This document shows positions 1,944 through 18,459 of a DNA stretch of 64,000 nucleotides, piece by piece. Positions within the stretch are counted from its first letter, which is position 1. Each line of letters starts with the position of its first letter. The notes under the pieces were generated by a model. It was not told the origin of the DNA, ran no database searches, and was given only the letters and a program-made list of their open reading frames with translations. Source of the stretch: Myxococcota bacterium (GTDB lineage: Bacteria > Myxococcota_A > Polyangia > Nannocystales > Nannocystaceae); contig JBCCHT010000032.1 in assembly GCA_039028615.1 (NCBI GenBank), positions 32,001 through 96,000 of the forward strand, read 5' to 3'. Position numbers and translations under genes: made by a program.

Positions 1944-4259
1944 TCACACGTTGCTCGCCACCGTGACCAGCGATGGGCGAAGGTACTCGTAGGGGCGATC
2001 GGATCGGGTGGTCCGATTGTCGAGGGTGATCTCTCGTTCGATCCGAGCCAGGTGTCGCCGCAGCTGCGCGACCATGGGCCAGACGTCGGGGTCTTCGAAC
2101 CAGTCGAGGGCGTACTCGCCTAGGCAGTCGCCGCGAAGCTCGGAGAGCACGAACATCACGCCGGCCTGGGTCAGCGTCGTCTCACCGCCGGGCAGGAACG
2201 CACCGAGGTCGAGCTCGCGAACGCGCCGAGGATCGGCATAGATCGCGGCGGGCACGTGCGAGGGGTCGCACTGCAGGTCGAACTGCCCGTAGTTGACCCC
2301 GCTGTGGAACACGCTCGAGCGGAAGATGATGGAGGTGAGTACGTCGGCGAGCACCTCGGTGTCATCGAAGGACTCGGGGAAGCCGGCCACGTGTCCCCCT
2401 TGCGAGTCACACAGCTCGGCCCGCCAGGCCTCGAGCTCGTGGTCGTCCTTCAGCTCCCGTGCCGAGGGGTAGTAGTGCTGCACGTAGGCGGTGACGAACT
2501 CGTGCAGGGCGTCCCAGAGCCGCAGCCCGTCGTCGCGGAAGGGATAGTTGGGCAGGGCCTCGCGGTCGTCGACGCCGCGGCGGGCGAGCTCTTGCGGCAG
2601 GTGCAGGTCCCAGAAGTCCCACTGCCGATAGTGACGGCGCATGATCTCGATCGAGCCGTCTTCGAGGCGCCCGGACAGGAGCTGCTCGGTGAAGCCCTGC
2701 GGGTTGGTGAGCGTCTGGCGGCCCAGGAAGTTGTTCCACAGCACCAGCCGCAGGTGCACGGCGAGCAGGGCGGCGATGGGATGATCGCGATGCAGCTGGC
2801 GGGCGGTGGCCACGGCGAAGGCCTCGAGTACAAAGTGCACCCCCGCCAGATGCGTGGCCATCTCGTGGTGATTGAACTCGGCACACAGGTACAGCGCCTT
2901 GACCCGGGTCCACAGTTCGTCGCCATCGGCCGGGGTCAGGCACTCGAAGGCTTCGGGGTCGCGCCCCAGCTGAATCGCGATGGGCCACAGCCCCGACGCG
3001 CTGCCCTCTCCCCAGCGATAGAACAGCCCGTAGGGCGCAGGTAGATAGCGCTGACGGGCGGTCTCGGGGCCGAGCAGCTGCCCGAAGAAATCGCGGTCGG
3101 GGCTGTTTTGGCAGGGGATGTCCGCCACCATCCCGAAGTCGGTGAGGAACAGGCGCCCTTGCTCGACCGCCTGCGCCAGCGTGGCATTGCCCGCGGCTTC
3201 GTCGTCCATGCCATGCGCACGAAGGGCCGCTTGCAAGTGTCCGTCATTGACGGCGAAGCCCTCGGGCAGGCCGTGGTCGCCGTCGGTCCCCACACGCCGA
3301 AGCATCACCGGGTTCGTGCCCGCCACCGGACGACGTCCGAACTCGGTGTCGTCGAGCGTGGGGTTGGGCCCGGTCGGCAGGGGCAGGTCGCGAATGAGCC
3401 GGCTGAGGAACATCTGCCCGTCGGGCGCGACCGTGTGGTACCGCCGCATGCGAGCCATGAAGTTCACCAGCAGCTCGGCGGGGGCGACGATGCGCTTGAC
3501 GGAATCGGGCAGCCACGGGTCCGCGGCTCGTCCCGGCTCGGGCGGCAGCTCGGGCTCGGGTTCGGGTTCGGGTTCGCGCCCCACCAGCTGACGCGCATGA
3601 TCGCGGGCGTTGCCGACGACCGCCTCGACGGTGCTTCGGACGAAGCCCTGGACGATCGTCGCCAGCTGCTCCGCATCGGGAAGCGACAGGCCGCCGGACT
3701 CCTGCATCGTGGCCTCCACGACCTCGTCTTGGAGCGCGTCCATGGCTCGGCCCAGCGGGGTGGTGGTGCCCTGGTCGAGGACCCACGTGCTCAGCTCGTC
3801 GACCGAACGCAGCAGCAGATCCGTGAGGGTCATCGCCAGCTGCTGCGCGGTGGGAATCTGTACTCGAAGCACACGACGCTCACCCGGTGACGGCATCAGC
3901 TCTCGCAGGGCTTGCCCGACCCACTGCGGCACTTGCTCACGCGCCAGCTTTCGCGACTGCAGCATGAGGCCCAGCCAGTGCGTCCGAGGGACCCGCTCGA
4001 GCAGCTCGTAGATGGCCGGCCCGGCCCCCAGGGTCTTGCGAATCAGCCACTCGCTGGGCGGCTGTTCGGCGGCAGGAAGCCCGGCAAAGGAACCCGCGAG
4101 CACATCGTAGATCGACAGCACTCCGGTGCCGTCGACGTACGGGATGTGCAAGAACGGGAAGGGGGCGAGGTACTCGTGGTCCCAGCGGTAGAGCGAACGC
4201 TGTTGCTCGAGCTCGTCGGCACGGGCCGTGGAAGGGTCGTGTTGGGGCAAGCGAATCAT
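1944..4259 (-). CDS. Lipoxygenase
   Basis: ATG at 4259 with GGAG RBS. Bacterial LOX N-terminus LPQHDP..ELEQQRSLYRW; EFGRRPVAGTNPVMLRR; LWPIAIQL; iron-ligand motifs HHEMATHLAGVH and FHSGVNYGQ; LPNYPFRDDG; C-terminus PYEYLRPS..ASNV. Confidence 0.95.
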   Translation of the reverse strand: MIRLPQHDPSTARADELEQQRSLYRWDHEYLAPFPFLHIPYVDGTGVLSIYDVLAGSFAGLPAAEQPPSEWLIRKTLGAGPAIYELLERVPRTHWLGLMLQSRKLAREQVPQWVGQALRELMPSPGERRVLRVQIPTAQQLAMTLTDLLLRSVDELSTWVLDQGTTTPLGRAMDALQDEVVEATMQESGGLSLPDAEQLATIVQGFVRSTVEAVVGNARDHARQLVGREPEPEPEPELPPEPGRAADPWLPDSVKRIVAPAELLVNFMARMRRYHTVAPDGQMFLSRLIRDLPLPTGPNPTLDDTEFGRRPVAGTNPVMLRRVGTDGDHGLPEGFAVNDGHLQAALRAHGMDDEAAGNATLAQAVEQGRLFLTDFGMVADIPCQNSPDRDFFGQLLGPETARQRYLPAPYGLFYRWGEGSASGLWPIAIQLGRDPEAFECLTPADGDELWTRVKALYLCAEFNHHEMATHLAGVHFVLEAFAVATARQLHRDHPIAALLAVHLRLVLWNNFLGRQTLTNPQGFTEQLLSGRLEDGSIEIMRRHYRQWDFWDLHLPQELARRGVDDREALPNYPFRDDGLRLWDALHEFVTAYVQHYYPSARELKDDHELEAWRAELCDSQGGHVAGFPESFDDTEVLADVLTSIIFRSSVFHSGVNYGQFDLQCDPSHVPAAIYADPRRVRELDLGAFLPGGETTLTQAGVMFVLSELRGDCLGEYALDWFEDPDVWPMVAQLRRHLARIEREITLDNRTTRSDRPYEYLRPSLVTVASNV

Positions 4260-4329
4260 TCGAGTCTCCAACCGTCGTGAGGGAGTCTCTCACGGGGCTC
4301 GGGGTTTCGGCAGCTGCTACGATGGGCCC

Positions 4330-5262
4330 ATGGCCTGGTTGGAGGGACCCGGACCGTCGTCGACCGTCACGCTGGCGGCTCGCTCCGTGGTCGGGCGGGC
4401 GCCCAACTGTTCGGTGCGTCCCGCCGATCGCCGTGTCTCGGGAGAGCACGCCACGATCGCGTGGTCGGGGGAACGCTGGGAGATTCGCGATCTCGGCAGC
4501 CGCAACGGCACCTTCGTCAACGGCCAGCGGATCGAAGTTCGGCGGGCCGTTCCGCTGAGCGTAGGAGACCAACTGGGTTTCGGTGGCGTCGACGAGGTCT
4601 GGCGCCTGGCCGACGCGAGCCCGCCCGTGGCGACCGCGCGGCGCGTGGGGAGCGGAGAGGTCCTCGTCGCCGAAGGACAGCTGCTGGCCTTACCCAGCGC
4701 GGACGAGCCCTGGATCACCGTTTATCAGGACATGCACGGCACCTGGCAGGCCGAGTCCACCGCGGGGTGCCGGGCGGTCGAGGACGGCGAAGTGCTCGAT
4801 GTCGACGGCCAGGCCTGGGCACTGCACTTGCCCACCACCCTCGAGCCCACCGTCGACGTCGACCAGCGGAACCCGGCCTTCGGCGAGCTGGAGCTGAGTT
4901 TCTCCGTCAGCAGCGACGAAGAAGACGTCGAGCTCATCGTCCGTCACGAGGGGCAACCGCTCGAACTCGGAGGGCGAGCCCACCACTTCGTGCTCTTGTT
5001 GCTCGCCCGGGCCCGACTCGAAGATGCCCAACAACCCGGCCTGTCCGAGGCCGAGCACGGCTGGCGCTACGTCGAGGACGTCTGCCAGATGCTGCGGGTG
5101 GACGATCTACGCCTGAACACTGCGATCTATCGCGCCCGCAAGGAGCTGGGTGCCATCGGGGTTCGCGGGGCGCCGCAGCTGGTGGAGCGCCGTCGTTCGT
5201 CGCGAAGCCTGCGGCTGGGCACGGGCGCGGTCACGGTCACCCGCAGCGGCCCGATTCACTGA
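4330..5262 (+). CDS. FHA-domain protein with C-terminal winged-helix DNA-binding-like domain (putative transcriptional regulator)
   Basis: FHA motifs VGR..C, VSGEHA, IRDLGSRNGTFVNG. C-terminal 'LNTAIYRARKEL..LVERR' resembles an OmpR-type wHTH. Confidence 0.85.
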   Translation: MAWLEGPGPSSTVTLAARSVVGRAPNCSVRPADRRVSGEHATIAWSGERWEIRDLGSRNGTFVNGQRIEVRRAVPLSVGDQLGFGGVDEVWRLADASPPVATARRVGSGEVLVAEGQLLALPSADEPWITVYQDMHGTWQAESTAGCRAVEDGEVLDVDGQAWALHLPTTLEPTVDVDQRNPAFGELELSFSVSSDEEDVELIVRHEGQPLELGGRAHHFVLLLLARARLEDAQQPGLSEAEHGWRYVEDVCQMLRVDDLRLNTAIYRARKELGAIGVRGAPQLVERRRSSRSLRLGTGAVTVTRSGPIH

Positions 5263-5271
5263 GGTCGGCGT

Positions 5272-6105
5272 CTACGCTTTGTCGAGCCCGAGGTGCTCGA
5301 CGACCTCGGCCAGGTGCTGCGCGTCGCCATCGACGAGCTTCTCCAGCAGCTTGCGGAAGCGGTCGACCCCGGGGCGCGTGGCTGAGTCGTCCGGTCGATA
5401 CAGCGGCAGCGGCTCGTCGACGCCCTTGAGCGTGTAGCGATCGAGAAAGGTCAGGCACAGCTCCCGATTCATCTCGTTCATGCGCTTTTGGATCGCGATG
5501 CGGCGCTCGTCGTCCCGCTCGGCTCGCTCCTTGGCCCGCAGGTCGTTGAAGTTCTCCCCGTAGAACGCGGAGGCGCACATCTCGACGTTGGTGTCGCCGA
5601 TGATCACGCTGGCGTTGGAGATGATCTTGGTGAGGGCCTCGACGCGGGCGGAGACGTTGACGCAGTGCCCGATGAAGGTGTTGACCCCGGCCGCGCCCGC
5701 GCCCGCGCGGACCCGGGAGACCTCGCCCGACTCGACGCCCACGCCGAAGGACACGAAGGGGAGCAGGCCGGTGGAGTCCTCGCGCAGGTCACAGCAGCGC
5801 CGTAGCCCCGCCTCGAGCAGGTAGGCCGACAAGAGCCCGTTGGCGTAGTGCCGGGGGCCGAGGAACACGACGAGCAGCCCGTCGCCCGTGCCGTTGACCG
5901 ACAGCGTGGGCTCCTCGCGCTCGCTCGGCGCCAGCGCGACCATGCAGGCCTCGAGGGTGGCGGCATAAAACAGCGCCAGGAAGTGACAGAACTGGTTGGT
6001 TCCGTCCGGGTCGAGCGCGGCCGCGTTGAGGTTGGGCGTGAAGTTGCGCAGGTCCACGAGGACGCTGGTCGCGGGGACCGGGGGATCGACTCGGGGACGA
6101 CTCAT
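5272..6105 (-). CDS. Stand-alone class III nucleotidyl (adenylate/guanylate) cyclase-like protein
   Basis: Metal-binding VDLRNFT and TGDG, FIGHCVNVSARVE (N..R), LKGVDEP. Confidence 0.75.
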   Translation of the reverse strand: MSRPRVDPPVPATSVLVDLRNFTPNLNAAALDPDGTNQFCHFLALFYAATLEACMVALAPSEREEPTLSVNGTGDGLLVVFLGPRHYANGLLSAYLLEAGLRRCCDLREDSTGLLPFVSFGVGVESGEVSRVRAGAGAAGVNTFIGHCVNVSARVEALTKIISNASVIIGDTNVEMCASAFYGENFNDLRAKERAERDDERRIAIQKRMNEMNRELCLTFLDRYTLKGVDEPLPLYRPDDSATRPGVDRFRKLLEKLVDGDAQHLAEVVEHLGLDKA

Positions 6106-6150
6106 GGGCGCCCCCAGGTTCGCCCGAAATCGGACTCGACGTCGAGCCTG

Positions 6151-7257
6151 TCAGGACACGACCACCACCATGGCCGCCAGCCCCACCGCGACACGCGCAA
6201 ACTCGAGGGGCACCGCCCAGCGTCGTCGTTCGAGCAGTCCCCCGCCAGCGACCACGGAGACCACGAGCCAGGCGACCATGGCCACGCGAAAACCGAGGCT
6301 CCAGTCGTCGCCCACCAACAGCGTCCAGCCGAGCACGGGCGGAATCAGCAGCCCCGAAAGGCCCACGTACCAGCGCAACGACCTCGTGCCCAGGGCCTCG
6401 GGGTGGGTCTCGGGCGAGGAGCTGCGATGGCCGGGCACGAGCCGCGCGAGGTGGGCGGGACCCGCCAGCCACAGGCGCAGGCGGTTTGCACCGTGGGCTC
6501 GTTGCGTGGCCGCGACCAGCTCGCGGAAGATCGCGAAGTTGCCCCACACCGAGTTGAGCGTGTGCAGCGGCTTGGTGAGGCCATAGCTGGGCTCTTCGTG
6601 TTCCTCTTGGAAGGTCCCGAACAGCCGGTCCCACACCACCAGGATGCAGGCGTAGTTGCGGTCGAGATACTTCTCGTTGCGGCCGTGGTGCACCCGGTGA
6701 TGCGACGGCGTGTTGAACACCCACTCGATTGGGCCCAGCTTGGGCACGTAGCGGGTGTGCATCAGGAACTGATACAGGAAGTCGAAGACCACGATGCCGA
6801 TGAACATCTCGATCGGCATGATGAGCGCCAAGGGGATGCGCCAGGGCCAGGAGGTCAGCTTCTGGAACGCGGCCTGGCGCAGCGCGGCGGCGAGGTTGTA
6901 GTCCTCGGCCGCGTGGTGGACCCCGTGGATGGCCCACAGAAAGTGAATCTCGTGGTGGTGACGGTGCAGCCAGTAGCTGGACAGGTCGAACGCGATGATG
7001 CCGATGACCCAGGCCCACCACGCATCGGTGGGCAGCAGGTCCCAGGTGACCAGCTGGGCGACGGCGAGGAAGGGGAGCGCCATCAGGCCCTTGGTGAGAA
7101 AATCGAAGGCCTGGTAGACGACGCCGTGGCCGATGTTCACGACCATCTCGCCCACGCGATAGCCACCGTCCTGCCGTAGTCGGCTCACCGCCAGTTCCGC
7201 GGTGATGAGCGCCACGAAGAAGAGGTAGGCGATCGCGAGCATCTGCAGTTCGGTCAT
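6151..7257 (-). CDS. Fatty acid hydroxylase/sterol desaturase superfamily membrane di-iron enzyme, alkylglycerol monooxygenase-like
   Basis: His boxes YWLHRHHH, WAIHGVHH, YQFLMHT, TPSHHRVHHGRN..YLDRNY..WDRLFGTF; multiple TM helices. Confidence 0.9.
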   Translation of the reverse strand: MTELQMLAIAYLFFVALITAELAVSRLRQDGGYRVGEMVVNIGHGVVYQAFDFLTKGLMALPFLAVAQLVTWDLLPTDAWWAWVIGIIAFDLSSYWLHRHHHEIHFLWAIHGVHHAAEDYNLAAALRQAAFQKLTSWPWRIPLALIMPIEMFIGIVVFDFLYQFLMHTRYVPKLGPIEWVFNTPSHHRVHHGRNEKYLDRNYACILVVWDRLFGTFQEEHEEPSYGLTKPLHTLNSVWGNFAIFRELVAATQRAHGANRLRLWLAGPAHLARLVPGHRSSSPETHPEALGTRSLRWYVGLSGLLIPPVLGWTLLVGDDWSLGFRVAMVAWLVVSVVAGGGLLERRRWAVPLEFARVAVGLAAMVVVVS

Positions 7258-7859
7258 GAGGAGCCTCCGAGGGCGGGCAAGATGCGGCCCAGTTGCTCGA
7301 CCAGCGCGATGACGGGGTCCGACTGGCCGGGGCGTTCGTAGCTGGCACCGACCGCCAGCCCGTTGAAGATGGAAAACACCAGGCTGGGCAGGACCTCCGC
7401 GAGTGCGGGGGGCACATGGCGGAGATCGACCAGCGCCATGAAGGCGGAGCGGACCTCGTTGTCGAAGCGGGTCATCAGCGCCCGCATGGGTTCACGAAGC
7501 TGGGGGTCGGTACGGGCCGCGACCGCCAGCTCCAGCCACGCCACATAGACGGGGCCCTGCCACTCTGCCCACAGCTGCTGCACGAGCGCGGTCGGCTGCA
7601 GCGGGGACTGGCCCTGCCGCGACGCGACGAAGCGGGCGACTCGCTCGGCGAGGATCGAGTCGAGGGCGGCGAGCAGCAGCGCGTTGCGGTTGGGGAAGTG
7701 GTGCAACATCGTGCCGCGAGAAACCCCCGCGCGTCGGCACACCTCCTGGGTACTGGTGCCCGCATAACCGCACTCGGCCAGCGACTCGATCGTCGCGTCC
7801 ATCAGCTTGGCCCTCGTCTGTTCCGAGCGCGATTGCTTGGGTGTGCTGTCTGCGGACAT
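7254..7859 (-). CDS. TetR/AcrR family transcriptional regulator
   Basis: N-terminal HTH 'GYAGTSTQEVCRRAGVSRGTMLHHFP'; ATGA overlap with the downstream desaturase. Confidence 0.95.
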   Translation of the reverse strand: MSADSTPKQSRSEQTRAKLMDATIESLAECGYAGTSTQEVCRRAGVSRGTMLHHFPNRNALLLAALDSILAERVARFVASRQGQSPLQPTALVQQLWAEWQGPVYVAWLELAVAARTDPQLREPMRALMTRFDNEVRSAFMALVDLRHVPPALAEVLPSLVFSIFNGLAVGASYERPGQSDPVIALVEQLGRILPALGGSS

Positions 7860-7930: not shown

Positions 7931-8358
7931 TAAAAACCAGCTCTTCTCGGTCCGAATAACGTTGTTATCCGAACACCTACGCGGCCAATCGATGTTCTCC
8001 ATCGTTTTGTGCGGGGTGGGCCGAGGGCGATCGAAACTGAGGTTCGACGAACTCGAGGCCTTCCGGCGACGACCCATTGCCGATGGCATCGCCGTCGATG
8101 ACGGGCGGGTCCGGGCTCCGTGATCGATGTGGCGTCTGGTGGATCCGCGTGTCATTGAACCCGAGTCGACGCTCAATGGGTCGACATGAGACGAGGCCTG
8201 AATTGCGCAGCCCCCATCGCGCGTAGCCCTGGCTCGAATCTCGTGTGGTTAGTTCCCTGAGTCGTCGTCCCGACACTCGATCGCGACGCAATCCGATCGT
8301 CGCTCGTGCGTCTCCTTCACCATGTGCAAGCGGGTGCGAACGCTTGCCTCCAAGTCCC

Positions 8359-10371
8359 ATGAAGCTCTCTCGTCCCGCCCCCCTCGTTGCACTGTCTGCG
8401 TTGTCCGTTCTGGCTCCCGGTTGCGTGGACGTGACCGACATCGAGCCCGAGTTCATCGACGAGCCCGCCCACGAGCGTGACACCCAGACCGTGACCGAGG
8501 CCGACTACGCGGGTGCATGCCCGGATACGCGGTTCATCGCTCGCTCGATCAGCCCCAGCCACTGTCCCGAGATCGACGGATGGATCGCGAGGTCGCTGTT
8601 CGAGGAAGGCTCGCCGTGGCTGATGGCAGCGCCCTCGGCCGCGGTCTCCGACTCGGATGGACATCTGTGCCGCTACTCGTGGGACGAGGTGGTCGAGCTG
8701 GGGGAGGCGCATGACAACCTCGAGCTGGCCGCGACCGGCTTGGCCGCCACGGTCGATGACCCGGAGCCACCCGTCCCGCCCGTGTTGCACGACTACAGCT
8801 CCGACTGTGAGGTCGTACGGGGTCAGCGAGGCTCGGCCATCTCGGACGTCGTCGGTCCGGGGGTGCGTCAGGTCTTCCGCGATCAAATCGGCTGGGTCCC
8901 CGGGGTGGCGTTGCCGCCCGGGTCCTCACCCGTCGCCGTCGCCGTGGTCGACACGATGCCGACCAGCGAGCCCGACGACCCGCGTTCGGAGCACGGCGAG
9001 CTCATGGCCCGCATCATCGAAGACGTGGCGTGCTCGGGTGGATTTCCCTGCGACGTGTCCGTCAGTCGCATCCTGGGCTTGCCTCGCTACATCGCGGGCG
9101 AAGACCGAGATCGGGGCGGCTACGTGGGGAGCCACGGCGATCTGGCGGTGGGCATCGTGGAGTCGGTCGAGCGCTGGCGCCTCGGTCACCCCATCCCCGC
9201 CCTTCGTCCTCCGCTCATCATCAACCTGAGCGTGGGCTGGGAAGCTACGCTCTTCGGATCCGGCGAGACCGTCTCGACGGAAGCCGTCGAGATTGCCATG
9301 GAGTATGCCTCGTGCCACGGCGCCCTGCTGGTGGCGTCGGCCGGCAACTCCAACTCGGCGTGCCAAGCGGGCGCCATGGCTCCTGCGATGTGGGAGAACC
9401 GAGCGGCCCCGGACTCGGCTCGCTGTCAGGAGCTCGGGTTCCCGCCCAATAGCTGGAACTCCGGCTATCGCCCCTTGGTGCACGCGGTGGGCGGCTTGAC
9501 CTTCCAGGGCGAGGACATGCCGGGCACCCGCCCCGAGAGCATGCCGCGGATGGCCGCCCACTCGACCCATGCCTACGCGGGCAGTGCGGTGCTGAGTAGC
9601 TCGCTCACCGGGACCTCGGTCGGAGCGGCCGCGGTCACTGGAGCGGCTGCCTTGGTGTGGTCCTACGATCCTTCGCTGCAAGCCCACGAGGTCATGGAAC
9701 TCGTCTATGCGGGGAGCGCCGACTTGGGGCGCAATGCCGACCTGCACATCGCGGGCAACGGTGCAGACACCGTTCATCGGCTGGACGTCTGCGAGGTCCT
9801 GCAAAACCAGTGCTCGCAGGATGCCCTCTGCAGCGCGGCGGGGGTGAACCTCGGCTGCACGCCGCCGGCTCACCACGACATGGATGCGGTTGCGGATGCG
9901 GTCGCGAACATTCCCGTCGCCGATTCGTATGCGCCGGCCTTCGGTGCCGCCCTGGCGTGTGCACCCATCTGTGGCGTGCCCAGCGAGGCCTATAGCGAGA
10001 CGTCGACCGTCTGCAACGAGATCGAGCCCGATCCGGTGGTGTTGTTCGTCAACCCGCAGCCCAACCTGCCCACGTGCTCCAACTGCACGCTGACCGACGA
10101 TGATGCCGACGATGACGCCGAGGCGTGGCAGGTGCACGCCTCGCTCGACTCGTTCTACGACGGCGCGCCCATCGAGCGGGTCGTGGTGACGGTGACCAGC
10201 GACATCATGGAGCGCTTCGATTTCGGTGCCGTGCCGCTCAGCTCCGACCGCGTGACGGTGCTCGAGCTCGGTTCTTGGGTGGCGCCGCCCCATATCCGGG
10301 CGGCCGAGATCGACATGTACTTCACGGGAAAGGACGCGCCCGTCACGAACGACATCATCGTCAAGCAGTAG
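8359..10371 (+). CDS. Subtilase (peptidase S8) family lipoprotein, Cys-rich
   Basis: Lipobox LAPGC. Catalytic-type motifs VAVVDT (Asp), HGELMA (His), IINLSVG, SAGN (oxyanion), GTSVGAAAVTG (Ser). Confidence 0.85.
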   Translation: MKLSRPAPLVALSALSVLAPGCVDVTDIEPEFIDEPAHERDTQTVTEADYAGACPDTRFIARSISPSHCPEIDGWIARSLFEEGSPWLMAAPSAAVSDSDGHLCRYSWDEVVELGEAHDNLELAATGLAATVDDPEPPVPPVLHDYSSDCEVVRGQRGSAISDVVGPGVRQVFRDQIGWVPGVALPPGSSPVAVAVVDTMPTSEPDDPRSEHGELMARIIEDVACSGGFPCDVSVSRILGLPRYIAGEDRDRGGYVGSHGDLAVGIVESVERWRLGHPIPALRPPLIINLSVGWEATLFGSGETVSTEAVEIAMEYASCHGALLVASAGNSNSACQAGAMAPAMWENRAAPDSARCQELGFPPNSWNSGYRPLVHAVGGLTFQGEDMPGTRPESMPRMAAHSTHAYAGSAVLSSSLTGTSVGAAAVTGAAALVWSYDPSLQAHEVMELVYAGSADLGRNADLHIAGNGADTVHRLDVCEVLQNQCSQDALCSAAGVNLGCTPPAHHDMDAVADAVANIPVADSYAPAFGAALACAPICGVPSEAYSETSTVCNEIEPDPVVLFVNPQPNLPTCSNCTLTDDDADDDAEAWQVHASLDSFYDGAPIERVVVTVTSDIMERFDFGAVPLSSDRVTVLELGSWVAPPHIRAAEIDMYFTGKDAPVTNDIIVKQ

Positions 10372-10374
10372 CGC

Positions 10375-13134
10375 TCAGGGAACGAGCACGTGCAGCGTCG
10401 CCCAGCTCGAGCTCGGAGCATCGACTCTGAGCTCGAGCTGTACCGCACGGAGGGCGGCCGCGAGATCGGCCTTCGGCTGTTGGGCGAGCTGCTCGGCGAT
10501 GCCCTCACCCACGCGCAGCGCGAGCTGATCGTCGAGGGTCCCGCTGGCGGCCAGCACCTCCTGGGCTCCGGCCAGTACGAAGGCTCGACCGAGGTTGACG
10601 CCGCCCGCCCACGCTCCCGCGCTATGGGACCCGGTATCGCAGCCCGCCAGGATCACCGCGGGGGGCACTCGGGACACGGCGAGTAGATCGATGACGCCCA
10701 GCTCACCGCCGTGTAGCAACAGGGCTGCATCCCACCCACCGGCTCCTCGATGTGCCCCGTGACCGGCGTAGTGCAGCAAGGCCGCGCTCTTCAGGCTCTC
10801 GAGGACGTTGGCTCGGGTCGCGCCCTCTCCATCGTGGCGGCCCACCTGCCAGCCCGCGCTCACCAGGGTCTGTTCGACGGCCCGGGCCTCGTTGCGGGCG
10901 GCGGGGAGGTTCTGCGAGGGGTCGGCCACGACGATGGCCCGGCGGGAGTCCACCGCGGCGGCGGGACGAGGCGGAAGGTCGAGGGCATGCACCAGCGGCG
11001 CAACGTCGAGCAAGGTCCGGTCGCCCACCCGAACCTTGGCCAAGGTCGGGTCTCGGTCGCGGCCGTCCGCCATGATGCGAATGCGCGTGGCGCCGTGCAG
11101 CGCCTCGGAGAAGGTCTCGAGAGTCTCGGGGGTCCAGCGGGTAGGCCCGGGGCTCGAGGGCAGCTGAGCCACCTCGACTCGACCGGCATCGTCGCCCACG
11201 AACGCCAAGCTCTGGTTTTGGTGCGAGAGGATGAGCAGCACTCGCTCGCCGCTCGGCACGGGAGGCAGTTGCTCGCAGCTCGGGGGCGGAGGCTCGAGCA
11301 GCAGGGTTCGCGTGGCCTCTTCGAAGGCCGCCGTCGCCTCGAGGTGTCGTTCGGATCGCCGGGCGCGACGGTTGATCTGCTGGGTCTCCGAGAGCGTCCA
11401 GTCCTCGCGAGCCTGGGCCTGGAGTTCGGCCCGGGTCTCGAGCAGGCCGAACGAGACCTGCTCCCATCGTGTTCGCTCCGCTGCGGGCAGACCCGCGATG
11501 CGGGCGGCGCGGTCCATTCTTCGCAGCGCCCGACGCCGGGCCATGCGTGCGCGGCACAAGGCCTCGGTCCGCTGCCCGCGGGCGACGAGGCGCTGCACCA
11601 GGCCCCACGCACTGGCCGACCGATCCCACAGGAAGTTCTCCGCGCCCACGCCCGTGCCCCCGGACGCCGAGGCCTCGTCGAGCAGGCCTTCGGCTGCTGC
11701 GTAGGCTTCGATGGCGGCTTCGTCGAGGCCGAGCCGGGTCAGCAGCGCGCCCCGGCGCACGGCCACGCTCCAGTCGAGGCCGAGCTCACCCGAGGGCGGG
11801 GTGCGAGCGAGCAGGGGAGGGGCCTGCTCCCAGCGCCCGGTGGCCAGCGCGACTTGGGCTCCGATCTCCGCGACCCAGGGCTCGAGCCACTGCGGCACGC
11901 CGTCGGCCCGCAGTTGCTGGTAGCGATCGTGAGCGTGCTCGAAGTCGCCTTCGACCAGCGCGGCGATGGCCAGGTTCACGCGCTGGTTCACCGCTTGCGT
12001 CGGATCGGGGCACTCGTGCTCGGACGCCTGCAGCGAGCGTTCGAAGGTCTCCCAGGGCACGTCCGCGGTGTGCCCCATCTGCACCATGCGCAGCTGGGCC
12101 CATCCCAGGTTGCCGAGCAAGCCACGTCGCATATGGCAGCGCAGGCGGGTGGAGTCGGCCAGGCGCATGCCTCGTTGCACGACGGCCATGGCCTCTTCGG
12201 TGCGTCCCAGCTCGCCGAGGAGCACCGCGTGTTGCTCGAGGGTCGTCGCCTGGTGGCTGAACATGCCCAGGCGGTCGGCTCGACGCTCCGCTTCGGCGAT
12301 CTGGGCCACCGCGGTGTGGAGGTCGCCCGTGGCGCTCAGCAGCAGCCCGCGATAGTACGGCGCCCAGGAGCGCGCCTCGGAGACCGTCTCGGTCAGCTGC
12401 TCGAGCCGCTCGATCCACTGCTGCGCCCGGTGCAGTGATTTGTCGAGGATGGCCCGGTAGGCGATCGCGGAGGCGATGTCGGCGAGGTCTCGATCGGCGC
12501 CCAAGGTTCGCGCGAGTGCGGCCGCCCGCTCGGCGGTCTTGGTGCCCTCGTCGACCGCCCCGGTGTTGTCGTGCAACCGCCTCAGGCGCTGGAGCACGGC
12601 CAGCCGAGCTTCGGGCTCGAGCGTCGGCAGGGCGTCGGTGAGCACCTGAATCTCTCGGTCGTATCCCTCCGCTTTGCCGAGCGCCTTCGCTTCACCCAAG
12701 ATCGGAGGCGCGCTGGTCCACTGCAGCGGGAGGGCGAAGGGCTCGGGCCACTGCGGGTCGATGCCCCCGAGCTGCACGACCGCGGTGTCGCTCGGGGGCC
12801 GAAGCACCACGTGTTGACCGCCGTCCACCGGCCGGGTCTGCAGTTCCAGGGGCTGCCCGTCCGCCGTGGCCTGCAAGGTCGCGGATGCGTCGGCATCGAT
12901 CCACAGGTTGAGGGTGGCGGTGCCCTTGCGACCCGCTCGCACGACACACTTCGGGCCCTGGCGCGAACGGCATCCGCGGACCTCGACCGTCGGTGTCTCG
13001 CCCAGGACGATCGTCGAGGGGCTCGCGGGCGCGGGAGGAGGCGGCGGCTCCTTCGAGCACGCGGCGACCACCAGGGCGACCAGCGGTGCCCCGAGCCGTC
13101 TGCGTTCAGCCGGATGGCGACGTGACCGTCGCAT
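10375..13134 (-). CDS. TPR-CHAT (caspase-like cysteine protease) domain protein, probable lipoprotein
   Basis: LVALVVAAC signal/lipobox; TPR-like helices; CHAT motifs VVADP..LPAARNEA, LLHYAGHG (His), VILAGCDTG (Cys), AFVLAGA, LRAVQ..WA. Start approximate. Confidence 0.85.
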   Translation of the reverse strand: MRRSRRHPAERRRLGAPLVALVVAACSKEPPPPPAPASPSTIVLGETPTVEVRGCRSRQGPKCVVRAGRKGTATLNLWIDADASATLQATADGQPLELQTRPVDGGQHVVLRPPSDTAVVQLGGIDPQWPEPFALPLQWTSAPPILGEAKALGKAEGYDREIQVLTDALPTLEPEARLAVLQRLRRLHDNTGAVDEGTKTAERAAALARTLGADRDLADIASAIAYRAILDKSLHRAQQWIERLEQLTETVSEARSWAPYYRGLLLSATGDLHTAVAQIAEAERRADRLGMFSHQATTLEQHAVLLGELGRTEEAMAVVQRGMRLADSTRLRCHMRRGLLGNLGWAQLRMVQMGHTADVPWETFERSLQASEHECPDPTQAVNQRVNLAIAALVEGDFEHAHDRYQQLRADGVPQWLEPWVAEIGAQVALATGRWEQAPPLLARTPPSGELGLDWSVAVRRGALLTRLGLDEAAIEAYAAAEGLLDEASASGGTGVGAENFLWDRSASAWGLVQRLVARGQRTEALCRARMARRRALRRMDRAARIAGLPAAERTRWEQVSFGLLETRAELQAQAREDWTLSETQQINRRARRSERHLEATAAFEEATRTLLLEPPPPSCEQLPPVPSGERVLLILSHQNQSLAFVGDDAGRVEVAQLPSSPGPTRWTPETLETFSEALHGATRIRIMADGRDRDPTLAKVRVGDRTLLDVAPLVHALDLPPRPAAAVDSRRAIVVADPSQNLPAARNEARAVEQTLVSAGWQVGRHDGEGATRANVLESLKSAALLHYAGHGAHRGAGGWDAALLLHGGELGVIDLLAVSRVPPAVILAGCDTGSHSAGAWAGGVNLGRAFVLAGAQEVLAASGTLDDQLALRVGEGIAEQLAQQPKADLAAALRAVQLELRVDAPSSSWATLHVLVP

Positions 13135-13903
13135 GCACGCTGAGCGTACGCCACGCGGTGTCGTCGGGCGAACTCGGCAGCTGCTGCAACGACTCGGGGA
13201 GCGCGTCGGGGGGGCCGACCAACAGCTCGAGCGTCCATTCCCCGGGGGAGAGCGCAATGAAGCGATTGAGCGGCCCCTTCAGGTGGATACCGCCGTTGGC
13301 CGAGATCTCGACGCCCTGGGCCGGTCGTACCAGCTTCGCGGGCACGCCGTTGCGGCGCGCCACGACGACAACGGCGACCGTGTCCCGAAACGGCGTCTTC
13401 GGGGTCAGCACGAGATCGAGCGGGCCGTCGAACTGAAGCTCGATGCGCTGGCCGGGCTCGGGCTCGCCCGCGCGATCGGAGGCCTGGCCCGCGGCGAGGC
13501 GCGTGATGGAGTACGAGGGCAGCGACGCGACCAGGTCCCGTTCCGGGCTCGGCGAGCGCGGGCTGCCCCACCACAGCAGGAGCATGGCGGCGACGGCCAC
13601 CACGGCGACGACGACGGTGATCGCCGCTCCGCGACCACGGCTGGGCGACGGTGCGAGCGGGACCACGTTGTCCGACGTGTCGCTCGTAGCCTCGCCATCA
13701 TCGGTACCGGTATCGGCGTCGTTCGAAGCGTCGTCGTCCTCCGACGCATCGAGGCGCGCGAAGGCGCCATCCAGCACCGAGCCCCGCTCGTCACTCGACA
13801 AGAGGCGACTCAGCGCCTCGGGAGCATCGCCCCGGGACAGCTGGTCCTCTCGGTCTCGCAGGTCTTCGCCCAGCGCGTGCAAGATCTCGTCCTCCTCCGT
13901 CAT
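13106..13903 (-). CDS. Putative membrane-anchored anti-sigma factor
   Basis: ATGA-coupled to the ECF gene. Acidic cytoplasmic N-terminus, 'NVVPL', single TM (VVVAVVAVAAMLLLWW), extracytoplasmic beta-domain. Confidence 0.65.
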   Translation of the reverse strand: MTEEDEILHALGEDLRDREDQLSRGDAPEALSRLLSSDERGSVLDGAFARLDASEDDDASNDADTGTDDGEATSDTSDNVVPLAPSPSRGRGAAITVVVAVVAVAAMLLLWWGSPRSPSPERDLVASLPSYSITRLAAGQASDRAGEPEPGQRIELQFDGPLDLVLTPKTPFRDTVAVVVVARRNGVPAKLVRPAQGVEISANGGIHLKGPLNRFIALSPGEWTLELLVGPPDALPESLQQLPSSPDDTAWRTLSVHATVTSPSG

Positions 13904-14538
13904 CCCCCTACGGTCCCTCCTGCCTCGGCTCCCGTGGTCGAAGCGTTGGCGAGCCGTTGGCTCACGATGCGCGCCTGTTTGCGGGTGCGATAGCACCACG
14001 CGTTCACGGCCCCGCGCGACATCTCGAGTCGGCTGGCGACCTCCGTCGGCTCGAGTCCCTGCACGAACAGGAGATCGAATAGCTCCACGTCGCGTGGGCT
14101 CATTCGTGCGTGCAGAGCCTCGAAAATCTCACTGAGTCGGGCCCGGTCCTCGATTCGTTTGTCGAGGTCGCCATCGAGTTCCTCTTGGTACTCGAGCTCC
14201 CCTTCGCCCCATGGGTGCCCGCGGTGTCGATTGAGCACCCGGGCCACGCGACGCCGCGCCACCAGACGCACGAAGCTCTCCAGGCTTCGACCTCGCTGTG
14301 GGTCCCAGCGCCGGAGCTCTCGGGCGTCGTGTTCGAAGAGCGTGACCAGGACCTCCTGCACGAGGTCTTGCACGTCTTGTCGCGGGTCCCGGCCGCGGTC
14401 CTTGGCCGGCCGCAGCAGCGCGATGCCGACCTCCCGCGTGATCGCGTCGAGCAGTCGTTCGGCCAGGCGTCGTCGCGAGCTGGGTCGACCCGCCAGGGCG
14501 GCCTCGACCAGCTGGACGTCGTCGTGACGCGAACTCAT
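13900..14538 (-). CDS. ECF-type RNA polymerase sigma-70 factor
   Basis: Region 2 'DVQDLVQEVLVTL..LRRWDP.RG.SLESFVRLVARR'; region 4 'GLEPTEVASRLEMSRGAVNAWCYRTR'. Confidence 0.9.
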   Translation of the reverse strand: MSSRHDDVQLVEAALAGRPSSRRRLAERLLDAITREVGIALLRPAKDRGRDPRQDVQDLVQEVLVTLFEHDARELRRWDPQRGRSLESFVRLVARRRVARVLNRHRGHPWGEGELEYQEELDGDLDKRIEDRARLSEIFEALHARMSPRDVELFDLLFVQGLEPTEVASRLEMSRGAVNAWCYRTRKQARIVSQRLANASTTGAEAGGTVGG

Positions 14539-14824
14539 GACGCGGTGTTATCACAAGCCGCGGCTGCGCCCGGTCCGGTTCGATATCGACGCCGGCAAAT
14601 GCGGTTCGCGGCCCCCCGGCCCCGATACGCCCGGCGTGCGACCGCGGGGGCGGTCTCGGTCCGATGGGGCGGCCCCCGGGTGTCTGGTTCCTGCCGATTT
14701 GTTCCATCCCATGTGCCCGTTGTCGCTCGTCGCCCGGCCGATGACGGGCCGTATTTTTTTCGAGTGCAGGCGTCATCGATCGACGGGGCATGGCCAAGGG
14801 GTGGACAGAAAGGAACCCGTCATC

Positions 14825-15043
14825 ATGAAGCGTAAGAAGAACATCAAGCCGCAGCTCACTGCTACCCGAGGGCCCGCCACCGGCCTCGCCGAGATCGGCG
14901 AAGAAGAGTTGGCCGGCATCAGTGCCGGAAGTGGCTCCCACCATGTGCAGTGGTACGAGTGGTCGGTTTGGCGATTCAACGGCGGCCCGCAGGTTCCGGG
15001 ACAGGGTCCCGCTGCCCCCCACAACCCCAACACTCAGAGCTGA
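14825..15043 (+). CDS. Putative RiPP precursor peptide, 72 aa (double-Gly-type leader; Trp-rich core)
   Basis: AAGGA RBS. MKRKKNIKPQLTATRGPATGLAEIGEEELAGISAG|SGSHHVQWYEWSVWRFNGGPQVPGQGPAAPHNPNTQS. Hidden inside the longer 14537-15043 ORF call. Confidence 0.75.
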   Translation: MKRKKNIKPQLTATRGPATGLAEIGEEELAGISAGSGSHHVQWYEWSVWRFNGGPQVPGQGPAAPHNPNTQS

Positions 15044-15069
15044 GCTTCACCGCTGCTCGCCACGTTCGC

Positions 15070-15104
15070 CCCCCGGCCGCGAGGTTCGTCCTCGTGGTCG
15101 GGGG
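15070..15104 (+). terminator. GC-rich stem-loop between the precursor and oxygenase genes
   Basis: CCCCCGGCCGCGAGG-ttcgt-CCTCGTGGTCGGGGG: 15-bp stem with two G-U pairs. The T-run (15121-15126) lies 16 nt downstream, so it may be an mRNA-stabilising or attenuating hairpin rather than a strict terminator. Confidence 0.6.
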
Positions 15105-15134
15105 TCCACTCGGTCTGCCCTTTTTTGGAGCGAG

Positions 15135-17015
15135 ATGATGTCCGCGCAACGACCCACGCCCGACGAATTTTGGAACACGATCGTTCCCCGCCATGAACCC
15201 GCCGTCTGGCGCGGTGCCGTCTCCGACATGGAGATCGTGAAGCTCGCCCGCGATGGGGCCGACCCTCTGCTGGATCGGCTGTCGGCCACGTGTGGCGATC
15301 GCCGGGTTCATGTGACCGGGTGTCCGCCCAGCGCCGAGGGCAAGATGGGTTTTCACGAGACCTTGTGGCCCGACTGGTCGCGGCGGGGCTCGACCTTCGA
15401 TGCCTTCATCGCCGATCTTCGTACCGAGCGGGCGCAGCCCAGCGGTCACTGTGCCTACATGCAGTCGGCGCCCATCGGCTCCGCGCTGCCCGAGCTGCTG
15501 CCCCTGACCTCGATCTGGCTCGCCGACGAGCAGCGCATGCAGGCCGAGAGCCGACAGCTATGGATGGGCAGCGGCGGTCAGCGACTCGCCGTTCACCAGG
15601 ATTCGACCCACAGCATCATCTGCATGGTCTCGGGCCACAAGGAGTTCATCCTGTTTCCGCCCGACCAACATCGGAACCTCTACACCGCGCCGCAGGGGCG
15701 CCTGTTCGAGTGGCCGTGGCGCAGTCGCGTCGATCCGCGTCGGCCCGACCTCGAGCGCTACCCTCGGTTCGCCGATGCGTTGGCTGCCTCGCGGACGATT
15801 CGCATCGGCCCGGGCGACGTGTTGTTCTTGCCCGCATATTGGTGGCACTCGGTCGACTCGTTTGGGCTCAACATCATGTTCAACTCGCGGTGGCTCGACG
15901 TCGAAGCCTCGCGTCTCGACGACGTCACCGCGGCCTTTGCCCACGGGGTGGTGAGCGCCCGGACGCTGCCGCCGTCGTTGCAGGAGCGGCTCCGCTCCGA
16001 GATCTCGACGCATGCGCTCGGAGACGAGGTGGAGTCCGCCCTCGACGACCAAGAGCGGGCACCGTGGATCGATGCGCTGCGAGCCGGCACCGCCGTTCGA
16101 GCGTCCGCCTCCGCGCGGACGCTCGACTGGGACCGGGAACTCGAGCTCGGCCCCGACGTCGTGGCTACGATGGGGGAGGCAGGCGTCTGCCTGCGCAACG
16201 ACGATACCGGGGCCACGCGAACCCTGGACTGGGACTTCGCCCCCGTGCTCGAGCAGTTCGGCCGCCCACGAACGCCCGCAGATGCGCTCCGTGCTCTGCA
16301 AGAGCAGTTCGACGTCGACGCGGCGGTACTCGGTGAGCAGCTCGTCGAGCTGGTGGCGGGCGGAATCTTGGTGTGCACCGATCCGCGACAGCGTACCGAC
16401 GATGAAACCCGGCTGCGCGCGACGGTTGCCCATACCGTGCTCGCGGCCCGCGGACTGCCTCTCCATCACCGTCGAGCGCTGAGGTACGCGCTCGAGATCT
16501 TCGCGTTCTTGCGCGAGGGCGAGCCCTATCCCGAGACCGAGCCGGCCCACCGCGGGGTGCTCGGCGTGCCGATGCTCGATGCGAATCGGCGCTACCTCGA
16601 AGGCCTGGTCCGGGAGCGAGTGCAGCAGCGCTTCGGCGAAGAGCTCGTGCCGGACGACTCGTGGGAGACGCCATATCGACTGGACCACACGCGGTCGATG
16701 ACGGTGGGAGCGGGTGGGCTGGTGCTGGTCGGGACCTCGGAGCAGACGCTCCTGTTGCCGTGGCACGAGGTCGAAGTGCTGTCCGAATTCCGCGAACCGC
16801 GACGCCCCGCGGACGTCTTCGCCGAGATCGATGCGCAGTGGGACACGACGCAGGAGCAGTTTCGGGCGTTGGTGACCCGGTGGATCGCGTGGGGAGCCCT
16901 CGTGCCCGTGGAGCGGGCGGCGGAGGCGAACGGCGGCGGCTACTGCTGCAGGCAGACGACCGACCACTCCGCCGAGCAGTCGCTGCTGGCGCTGGGCAGG
17001 ATCCACTCCGCGTAG
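15135..17015 (+). CDS. JmjC/cupin-8 Fe(II)/2-oxoglutarate oxygenase fused to two RRE/PqqD-like winged-helix domains
   Basis: GGAG RBS. LWMG..VHQD (HxD), SGHKEFILFPP, PDLERYPRF, GPGDVLFLPAYWWHSV (His). Two C-terminal 3-beta/3-alpha units end in 'LVELVAGGILV' and 'VTRWIAWGALV'. Confidence 0.85.
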   Translation: MMSAQRPTPDEFWNTIVPRHEPAVWRGAVSDMEIVKLARDGADPLLDRLSATCGDRRVHVTGCPPSAEGKMGFHETLWPDWSRRGSTFDAFIADLRTERAQPSGHCAYMQSAPIGSALPELLPLTSIWLADEQRMQAESRQLWMGSGGQRLAVHQDSTHSIICMVSGHKEFILFPPDQHRNLYTAPQGRLFEWPWRSRVDPRRPDLERYPRFADALAASRTIRIGPGDVLFLPAYWWHSVDSFGLNIMFNSRWLDVEASRLDDVTAAFAHGVVSARTLPPSLQERLRSEISTHALGDEVESALDDQERAPWIDALRAGTAVRASASARTLDWDRELELGPDVVATMGEAGVCLRNDDTGATRTLDWDFAPVLEQFGRPRTPADALRALQEQFDVDAAVLGEQLVELVAGGILVCTDPRQRTDDETRLRATVAHTVLAARGLPLHHRRALRYALEIFAFLREGEPYPETEPAHRGVLGVPMLDANRRYLEGLVRERVQQRFGEELVPDDSWETPYRLDHTRSMTVGAGGLVLVGTSEQTLLLPWHEVEVLSEFREPRRPADVFAEIDAQWDTTQEQFRALVTRWIAWGALVPVERAAEANGGGYCCRQTTDHSAEQSLLALGRIHSA

Positions 17016-18142
17016 ACGGTGGATCCGAAGGGCCGGGCCGCATACGCCGTGTCGGTCCAGCCATCGCAGGTCGTCTCTGCCGTCGCCATGCTGGTGGGCG
17101 AGTCGACGCCCGTCCAGAACGCGGTGGAGGGCGTGACGGTCCCGGTCGCATCGAACAGGACCGGGGCCTCGGCGATCAGCCACTGCGAGGGATCGCCCGC
17201 GGTGGAGATCACGGTGACGCCATCGGCCCGCACCCAGTCGCCGCCGTCGAGAGCGTGTCGCTCCCAGAGCGTCTCGCCGGGCTCCGCCATCAGGGCGAGG
17301 ACGGTGCCCTCCAACCCGGCGGCGTTGGCCTCGAGTGCACACAGGTCATCGGCGGCTTGGCGCCCCGCATCGGCGGTCAGCAATCCCGCCGTCGCGAAGA
17401 TGCGTCGCGCGTCGGCGGGCGGAGTGGGGGCGGGCTGCGGCGCATCGGCGTCGATCCCCAGGCACAACAGGTGGCCCGTGTTCGCGCAGGAGAACAGCAC
17501 GAAGTCGACCCAGTACCGGTCGCCGCCGTCGGTATAGCCCCCGCGTCCGCGAACCTTGCCGTCGGTGGATTGCCAGTTTTCGCAGTGCTCGGGCGCGACC
17601 AGGCCGCTACGCAGGCTCCCCGTGAACGCGCTCGCGACCCCGTTGCCGTTCACCAGCGTGCCGGACTCGGTGTACATCAGGGGATAGCTGATCTGTCCCG
17701 AGGTCAGCGCTTGGCGATCGGTCGCGAACACGCGGCCGTCGGTGCGGGTCCAGCCGTTGGCGGAGCCCAGCCGGGTCACGGCGTCGGCGGTGCTGTCGGA
17801 CAGGTACGCGACATAGCTCCCGGGGAGCCCGGCCTCCGATGCGCGGTCGTTGCAGATGGCATCCGCGGCCGCCAAACCCCCGAACGAAGGGTTGTGGGCG
17901 GTGGAGGTCACGAATGCCAGGTTCATCTCGACCACGGGCCCTCGCGCCGTCGATTCGTCGCCCGAGCCCCCGCTGCTGTCGGAGCCGCTCGTCTGCGAAC
18001 CCGTCGAGGTGCTCTCACCCGTGGTCGGTACATTCGCGTAGCTGGGGTCGATCTCGACGCAGCCGGTCGTGCTGCCCACGACCACGAAGGACGCCGCGGT
18101 CAGCCAGCCTCGGGCCACGCATCGCGGAGTTCGACATGCCAT
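16940..18142 (-). CDS. Secreted/lipoprotein with two DUF1554-like (collagen NC10/C-type lectin-like) domains
   Basis: Ser/Thr/Gly linker, then duplicated 'AFVTS..GGLAAADAIC..A..AGL.G.Y.A..S' and 'W.R.DG', with 'C..W' and 'LLC' motifs. Confidence 0.75.
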   Translation of the reverse strand: MACRTPRCVARGWLTAASFVVVGSTTGCVEIDPSYANVPTTGESTSTGSQTSGSDSSGGSGDESTARGPVVEMNLAFVTSTAHNPSFGGLAAADAICNDRASEAGLPGSYVAYLSDSTADAVTRLGSANGWTRTDGRVFATDRQALTSGQISYPLMYTESGTLVNGNGVASAFTGSLRSGLVAPEHCENWQSTDGKVRGRGGYTDGGDRYWVDFVLFSCANTGHLLCLGIDADAPQPAPTPPADARRIFATAGLLTADAGRQAADDLCALEANAAGLEGTVLALMAEPGETLWERHALDGGDWVRADGVTVISTAGDPSQWLIAEAPVLFDATGTVTPSTAFWTGVDSPTSMATAETTCDGWTDTAYAARPFGSTVYAEWILPSASSDCSAEWSVVCLQQ

Positions 18143-18459
18143 CGTGAAGGTGTGCGTGCGGCGGGTCGTGACAACGACGAACCGCTGTACGCAGAGTACA
18201 CCGCAAAATCACTACGCATGCGTCGGGGATCCAACCCGGGCAACCCTCACGACGATCTCGTCATGCTCGCGACGTCGAGGTGGCCCACAATTGCACAAAC
18301 TTCATACGCGGCGTCAGCTTCGTTAGACCTCCGGGGAATCTCGGGCGCGACCTCGGACGAGCCGGCCCTCGAATGCCCTCGAAACGACCGCAAACGAGCG
18401 CTCCAGCGCTCTTCACGCTGTACGTCTCGGATACTCTGAAGCAGTCGGGTGACCGGGCG

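Follow-up and report, generated by a model that had tools for sequence, protein, structure and literature searches.

A two-gene cassette, consisting of a short peptide gene followed by the gene of a JmjC/cupin oxygenase, lies at positions 14,825 to 17,015 of a 64,000-nucleotide stretch of DNA from a Myxococcota bacterium of the Nannocystaceae (assembly GCA_039028615.1, contig JBCCHT010000032.1). The whole stretch is called here the window, and its source genome, of 12.3 Mb and 68% GC, is referred to as G000. The cassette is real and rare; it resembles known Fe(II)/2-oxoglutarate (2OG)-dependent hydroxylases acting on peptides that are made by the ribosome and then modified post-translationally (RiPPs), and it falls in no described class among those tested. 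The features that define it, including two predicted RiPP recognition elements (RREs), are listed below with window positions and strand (Z, fold-comparison Z-score; rmsd, root-mean-square deviation).

14810..14814, +, ribosome-binding site (RBS; AAGGA) of the peptide gene, 10 nt 5' of the ATG
14825..15043, +, candidate precursor peptide, 72 aa: Lys-rich start, leader (residues 1-35) ending in LAEIGEEELAGISAG, Trp-rich core (W43/W46/W49), Pro/Gly tail
15070..15104, +, intergenic hairpin of 15 pairs (z -3.36; 0/200 shuffles fold equally well)
15096-15125, +, second, weak terminator-like stem with a U-run, 3' of the 15-pair hairpin
15135..17015, +, predicted JmjC-[helical-RRE]2 oxygenase, 626 aa, probable start at 15138 (second ATG)
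15159..15893, +, Cupin_8/JmjC domain: Fe ligands H154, D156 and H238, K169, and the family-specific, near-invariant H159
15906..16088, +, helical unit A (residues 258-318), a degenerate copy recognised from the model, self-alignment and profile alignment
16125..16376, +, RRE 1 (residues 331-414), strands then three helices: TbiB1 Z 8.3, rmsd 2.6, 80 aligned; 6JX3 Z 8.1, rmsd 2.5, 81 aligned
16401..16634, +, helical unit B (residues 423-500), putative dimerisation helices with homology to the helical tail of bacterial Cupin_8 proteins that have one RRE or none
16650..16907, +, RRE 2 (residues 506-591): TigE Z 10.2, rmsd 2.1, 82 aligned; MibB Z 9.2, rmsd 2.0, 86 aligned; MccB Z 8.9, rmsd 2.8, 81 aligned

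The peptide was first described in an initial annotation made from the bare sequence, which gave it an RBS of its own, a double-Gly leader and three Trp residues at i, i+3 and i+6 followed by a Pro/Gly tail. All these traits hold. The translation and the AAGGA box stand as described, the GC content of the open reading frame (ORF) by codon position (0.63/0.54/0.76) has a coding-type GC3, and W43, W46 and W49 have the stated spacing. Genome-wide, a loose double-Gly motif is found at only 15 of 46,859 small-ORF stops, the 72-aa peptide among them, and several of the other ORFs adjoin RiPP enzymes (YcaO, ATP-grasp, lanthipeptide enzymes). A strict form of the motif, narrow enough to miss other precursors, has four six-frame matches in the genome, of which this peptide is the only small ORF; for these leader tests we used what we take to be the double-Gly consensus. 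The peptide thus has what is looked for in a double-glycine RiPP precursor, namely a short ORF with an RBS and a leader ending in GG, GA or AG, with a predicted cleavage site after the leader; the C39 peptidase transporter of a double-glycine system is absent from the locus, the three in this genome being encoded elsewhere. Five aromatic residues are packed within nine positions of the core, and the spacing WxxWxxW is seen 27 times among 4.3 million long-ORF positions. The protein collection contains no homologue of the peptide (P0001) other than itself (1 candidate), and its PDB matches were judged to be due to chance. The intergenic hairpin probably sets a high peptide:enzyme ratio in the mRNA.

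The second gene encodes a predicted JmjC/Cupin_8 Fe(II)/2OG enzyme, an assignment resting on a Cupin_8 match above cut-off, a modelled JmjC fold and a complete set of metal ligands plus Lys. Its start is probably the second ATG, because of the RBS spacing and of a database protein of 625 aa, while its last ~30 residues are unconserved and of low confidence in the model. Cupin_8 matches residues 9-253 with E 5e-48 (164.7 bits; cut-off 27.4). By contrast, JmjC_2 (PF08007), the ribosomal-oxygenase family, reaches just 15.7 bits against a cut-off of 22. In the full model, the closest catalytic folds are those of JMJD5 (Z 25.7, rmsd 2.4, 226 aligned), TYW5 (23.8), JMJD7 (23.6) and FIH (21.1), and FIH is also related by sequence (E 4e-19). 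The intact HxD...H triad read in the initial annotation is confirmed, since H154, D156, H238 and K169 align with their FIH equivalents; of 12 aligned family members, one of them a fragment, 11 or 12 keep the triad and Lys intact. Moreover, H159 is near-invariant in the double-RRE family and is not found in single-RRE relatives.

The C-terminal half of the enzyme contains the two RRE units. In the AlphaFold model (12 sequences, predicted local distance difference test score, pLDDT, 81) the order of elements is JmjC domain, three helices, RRE, three helices, RRE, and both RRE units show the typical layout of three strands and three helices in ~85 aa. When this half was folded separately (pLDDT 69), the fold comparison gave 8 chains with Z>=8 among 48,161; the top Foldseek match was the cyanobactin oxidase ThcOx (E 8e-4), which VIA aligns over both units. 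By sequence the RRE signal stays below cut-off (PqqD E 0.063, lasso PqqD E 0.088), so that the two RRE-like units proposed in the initial annotation are upheld by the predicted fold of both and weakly by sequence. Aligning residues 255-416 with 419-595 gives 28% identity over 172 columns (E 2e-9), and when the enzyme is aligned by profile to 20 single-RRE relatives of ~440 aa, exactly one [helical+RRE] unit is passed over (probability 100); the unit is thus duplicated in tandem within the protein. The FIH alignment in the full model extends to residue 482, consistent with unit B occupying the place of the FIH C-terminal helices. Together, the two [helical+RRE] copies probably form an intramolecular pseudo-dimer.

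This JmjC-[helical-RRE]2 family is rare, with about ten proteins. A word search returned five full-length homologues (39-56% identity), and 8 representatives cover both parts of the oxygenase. Orthologues are present in 4 of 72 other genomes of the taxonomic family, all from genus g17 (with G000, 5/73), and none was found at E<=1e-30 in 5 other genomes of the source genus, which are 72-95% complete. In a phylum-wide sample the C-terminal half is matched in 3 of 401 genomes, none of them outside the taxonomic family. In a tree of 26 JmjC domains, from which the fragments P0011, P0012 and P0056 were left out, all 12 double-RRE rows group in a single clade (100/100). Neighbourhoods were examined at 5 of the 80 metagenome loci retained from 195 confirmed ones and, among 78 + 80 genome loci, at the known ones plus a Nitrosomonas locus (L191).

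A double-Gly, Trp-rich peptide adjoins the oxygenase at all four distinct loci with both flanks (G000, G063, G064 and G065); L011, a near-copy of G063, is not counted separately, and L012 and G067:C16, both cut by contig ends, stand outside this count. In G063, G064 and G065 the peptide is encoded directly downstream and has an MKRK start, a leader ending in VAGG, the core REWGWWQ[IV]QP and a Gly/Tyr-rich tail. This core aligns to EWSVWRFN of the 72-aa peptide, with E45, W46 and W49 invariant and the third Trp, W43, absent from the relatives. A peptide profile revealed four further g17 loci without the oxygenase; over the seven peptide loci, an orphan 230-aa protein X, a GNAT gene and a P-loop gene without Pfam match, which we take to be sulfotransferase-like, are each present at 6/7, and the oxygenase at 3/7. 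The WWQ[IV]Q core is present in 3/3 g17 peptides beside an oxygenase versus 0/4 without one, a pattern that points to the segment aligned with EWSVWRFN. Protein X could be assigned to no Pfam, NCBIfam or Atlas family, and it was recovered at just 5 loci, each corresponding to a known g17-type locus. In G067:C16 a small double-Gly-like ORF lies ~2 kb downstream of the oxygenase; the fragment upstream of that oxygenase was considered as a piece of X and gave no match. The g17 peptide clusters are located at L008:7725-12540, L010:3500-10199, L184:7431-10178, L185:8478-10573, L186:8011-10787 and L187:7259-10010, with precursors that are Gly/Tyr/Trp-rich, of double-Gly type and end in WY.

The adjacent double-Gly, Trp-rich peptide at 4/4 orthologue loci, together with one fusion protein, makes a role of the cassette in RiPP biosynthesis likely, and we hold it with good confidence. 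The relative P0007 bears a fused extension of 390 aa, which shares 35% identity (E 1e-70) with a protein encoded three times in G000 beside double-Gly precursors; Atlas leads for this extension, all below 0.9, are metalloprotease-like. As to mechanism, the 72-aa precursor would be made in excess through the intergenic hairpin, and one or both RREs, judging by their fold, would bind the acidic leader. The JmjC site would then hydroxylate at least one residue of EWSVWRFN, most likely at C-beta of Trp46 or Trp49, else Arg50 or Asn52, as suggested by the nearest structural relatives. The pseudo-dimer would stand in for the single-RRE relatives' homodimer and give a single catalytic domain two leader-binding sites. 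Leader removal and export would take place in trans, with the three C39 transporters as candidates. The most likely explanation, to which we give about even confidence, is thus a minimal RiPP pathway to a natural product, with leader binding by the RREs and hydroxylation of the Trp-rich segment by the JmjC site. The initial annotation had left the choice between hydroxylation and cross-linking of the aromatic residues undecided; hydroxylation (+16 Da) within the EWxxW-x-hydrophobe-N/Q segment is likelier, because the nearest solved structures are JMJD5, JMJD7, FIH and TYW5, which we take to be protein or tRNA hydroxylases, and nothing favours cross-linking over it.

Several observations weigh against this minimal hydroxylating cassette. 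The 4/4 count leaves out the two closest enzymes, P0004 and P0005 (~55% identical), and its three g17 loci count as one event because they belong to one clade of the tree. Profiles built from the relatives' peptides fail to detect P0001, which ranks 14 of 80,955 small ORFs with the seven-peptide profile (E 12) and 50,583 with the three-peptide one; for this reason the shared EWxxW may reflect convergence or chance, and homology of P0001 to the g17 peptides was not retained. The initial annotation had named homologues without cognate peptides as a finding that would tell against it; on that point it is supported, by the adjacent peptide at every distinct locus with both flanks. In g17 the oxygenase behaves as an optional add-on beside other genes, adjoining the peptide at only three of the seven loci, and in G067 its gene shows translational coupling to an upstream gene that is truncated at the contig end, with the g17-type peptide on another contig. 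Neither a protease nor a transporter is encoded at the G000 locus. Finally, the positions of FIH Thr196 and Asn205, which presumably have roles in 2OG binding, are Leu151 and Ser160 in the oxygenase, and the co-substrate pocket is therefore altered.

Among the alternatives, the oxygenase could be a tailoring enzyme only and the G000 locus a part, reduced or displaced, of some larger pathway whose other enzymes are elsewhere or lost. The g17 peptide family fits this explanation, as it lacks the oxygenase at 4/7 loci and has X at 6/7; the same holds for the fusion of P0007 to a second domain, the G067 copy within an operon, the many other RiPP enzymes of G000 (where a sulfotransferase-like homologue occurs at three places) and the missing orthologue in the 5 other genomes of the genus. 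Nevertheless, neither X nor GNAT has a detectable homologue in G000 (tblastn E<0.01; for X also by profile), the cassette has its own RBSs, the hairpin and an intact active site, and the oxygenase locus G063:C2 is likewise without X. G000 also departs from the g17 Gly/Tyr-rich family in that the profile gives only E 12, the PTN..YGG tail of the X-linked peptides is replaced by a different one, and X is missing; since the profiles miss P0001 and the genome has neither X nor GNAT, the G000 pair is best described as a distinct, minimal version. The split pathway is regarded as unlikely. The earlier view of the JmjC enzyme as sole, class-defining maturase stands for the G000 locus and does not extend to g17, where the peptides come with X, GNAT and the sulfotransferase-like gene.

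A second alternative concerns the chemistry. The oxygenase might perform oxidative cross-linking, desaturation or cyclisation of W-x-x-W-x-x-W in -2 Da steps, which would establish a new class of macrocyclic RiPPs. No other enzyme is present at the locus with it, its substrate would offer the dense aromatic core with Trp at i, i+3 and i+6, and its second-shell residues differ from those of FIH, with H159 having no counterpart in single-RRE relatives; the changed pocket (L151, S160, H159) may leave room for unusual chemistry, without demonstrating it. Against this, the nearest solved relatives presumably hydroxylate protein or tRNA, and W43 is not found in the relatives' peptides. Crocagin offers a precedent in which Tyr/Trp beta-hydroxylation triggers ring closure, and there the closure needs CgnB/CgnE, genes of a kind not seen at this locus (PMC10070186, as far as its accessible text describes the pathway). 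Cross-linking in this strict sense is doubtful. A broader proposal, itself unlikely, is a new RiPP class whose defining maturase would be a single JmjC enzyme, self-sufficient through its duplicated helical-RRE part (two leader clamps for one catalytic domain, pseudo-dimer), that would use a remodelled pocket (H159, S160) to introduce cross-links or multiple oxidations on W-x-x-W-x-x-W.

Least probable, and very unlikely in our view, is a non-RiPP protein hydroxylase in the style of the ribosomal oxygenases, with winged-helix domains binding a cellular protein and the peptide being regulatory or an unrelated small ORF: MINA53 (Z 7.2) and NO66 (Z 4.8) do appear in the RRE-unit fold comparison and share the order of JmjC, helical and RRE-like winged-helix parts, the RRE signal is below cut-off by sequence, and just 60% of the hits of the RRE-Finder Cupin_JmjC_RRE model are true positives according to the accessible text of PMC12710340, yet the JmjC domain is Cupin_8 and not JmjC_2, the distribution is patchy (5/73 family genomes), and a peptide type as scarce as 15 in 46,859 small ORFs adjoins the enzyme at every distinct locus.

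The surroundings of the cassette include two further features.

8245-14538, divergent, upstream of the peptide gene: module of an S8 subtilase, a CHAT/TPR protein, an anti-sigma-like protein and an extracytoplasmic function (ECF) sigma factor
16940-17015: overlap, over 76 bases, of the unconserved tail of the oxygenase with the end of a convergent DUF1554/endostatin-like gene downstream

The ECF/anti-sigma/CHAT/S8 module has a second copy in G000 (ECF match at C1:126025), and its genes were found in 3/5 other genomes of the genus (E<=1e-40); the three regions excised from these genomes, one with only ~1.6 kb upstream, contained no peptide or oxygenase match. Since genus members carry the module without the cassette, it is not considered part of the system. 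The neighbouring genes and a domain search bear out the earlier statement that no other maturase and no C39 transporter is present at the locus. Because three C39 transporters and five YcaO genes are encoded elsewhere in G000, action in trans may occur, and export in trans is plausible since several precursor clusters of this genome likewise have no adjacent transporter. One public sequencing run, perhaps the one from which this DNA came, has contigs over 13800-16029 and 16122-18300; no differing letters are listed for them, and the stretch is not spanned by any single piece; no RNA sequencing run containing the locus is listed.

Single-RRE relatives are also found in RiPP-like contexts. L013 lies in a cluster with a bacteriocin-type ABC transporter, glycosyltransferases and a RiPP radical SAM enzyme, and L191 (Nitrosomonas aestuarii, 4082-7272) combines a 66-aa peptide with VIYW in its sequence, a Cupin_8 protein and an M29-like protein (E 7e-4), the last giving no PDB match at E<0.001. 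The layout of L191 is reminiscent of crocagin, with an oxygenase of a different family; the idea, taken from its peptide and M29-like gene, that CgnC belongs to the present oxygenase family was rejected by eye.

G000 itself is rich in other precursor loci. An unannotated RiPP-like module occurs in three copies (C16:200199-203150; C27:93150-96420; C1:732200-738800), each with a ~400-aa HDYxH protein, a ~500-aa protein, presumably YdiU/SelO-like, neither with a Pfam match, and between one and three double-Gly precursors. These precursors have a leader of the LxLxDLxxVRGG type, and most carry CxC at the C terminus; a C39 transporter accompanies the C1 copy. This module may be a better candidate for a new class than the JmjC cassette. 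At C8:196200-208500 (L300) a double-Gly precursor is accompanied by a LanB-type dehydratase, a probable B12 radical SAM enzyme, several JmjC/cupin genes and a probable carbamoyltransferase, the last labels being assigned by eye. Double-Gly-type precursors further occur alongside two YcaO genes together with a probable radical SAM gene (C17:14900-22755), a YcaO and a probable dioxygenase gene (C63:7900-14627), a probable radical SAM gene (C47:17167-18844), an ATP-grasp-like gene and a C39 transporter, with repeated TTLAIGEED cores (C18:214226-218716), and no obvious enzyme (C21:42950-43126). An S8 protease with a match to the PatG C-terminal domain lies outside any recognised cyanobactin cluster (C39:82179-85158).

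Were the proposed reading correct, several consequences would follow. One enzyme and one peptide at the locus name a substrate, and the cassette would tell if JmjC enzymes guided by a leader are able to oxidise or cross-link Trp. Furthermore, an aromatic or beta-hydroxylase directed by a leader would give peptide engineering a portable tool, and the duplicated unit raises the question of how RiPP enzymes use two RREs.

Compared with known systems, the oxygenase belongs by sequence and fold (Z 21-26) to the JmjC subfamily of FIH, JMJD5, JMJD7 and TYW5, sharing the metal triad and Lys, whereas these enzymes are eukaryotic and without RRE, and the FIH Thr196/Asn205 positions are changed in it. 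MINA53, NO66 and YcfD, ribosomal oxygenases that act on ribosomal-protein substrates, have the same layout of JmjC, helical and winged-helix parts and differ in their PF08007 domain, single winged helix and weaker fold match (Z 11-14). With cyanobactins the links are ThcOx as best Foldseek match and a leader segment, LAEIGEE, resembling the conserved LAELSEE (PMC4558948, PMC5460452, in their accessible parts); on the other hand, the heterocyclase and the PatA/G protease are missing from the locus, and the nearby S8 gene belongs to the ECF-CHAT module. For the 37-aa leader, the cyanobactin leader family TIGR03678 alone was listed (E 7.3, 7 bits, cut-off 39.6); the leader is not among the 13 genome matches, and its resemblance to the cyanobactin type is one of motif.

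Crocagin, the parallel chosen in the initial annotation, has in common a myxobacterial Fe/2OG enzyme and a precursor whose leader is Lys-rich and whose Trp/Tyr residues the enzyme acts on, here by prediction (PMC10070186). However, CgnC, as described in the accessible text, is ~300 aa long, does not itself bind CgnA, depends on CgnB/CgnE and serves a core that is the C-terminal tripeptide; by eye it lacks RRE and Cupin_8 motifs and looks like a member of another dioxygenase family. Nor does the G000 locus have a C-terminal X-Tyr-Trp core or CgnB/CgnE, its core being internal and no further genes present (the absence of CgnB/E refers to the locus and not to the genome). This parallel is consequently replaced by closer precedents, the JmjC RiPP hydroxylases CzlI of curacozole, which converts Phe to Tyr (PMC11575548), and BipG/PbsQ of biphenomycin, which act on Orn (PMC12707348, PMC12257519). 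These are likewise Fe/2OG JmjC enzymes hydroxylating a precursor peptide; they differ, by description, as tailoring enzymes of YcaO or MNIO/radical-SAM clusters for which the accessible texts mention no fused RRE, while here the JmjC enzyme stands alone with its peptide.

The literature searched, with subscription papers mostly outside it, describes no two-gene JmjC-RRE-RRE system and no characterised JmjC-RRE fusion. The novelty claimed in the initial annotation thus stands for the two-gene arrangement; it is narrowed by the JmjC RiPP hydroxylases just named and by fusions already catalogued in RRE-Finder as Cupin_JmjC_RRE (RREFam042; PMC12710340). The RREFam042 proteins are the nearest match in architecture, with a JmjC/cupin domain fused to an RRE-fold domain and bacterial members in RiPP-like contexts, and the accessible part of that paper reports no chemistry for them. 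They are set apart by description, the accessible text discussing PF08007-type proteins, whereas the present enzyme combines PF13621, a duplicated [helical+RRE] unit and a candidate substrate, and its chemistry would be the first for this catalogued fusion family.

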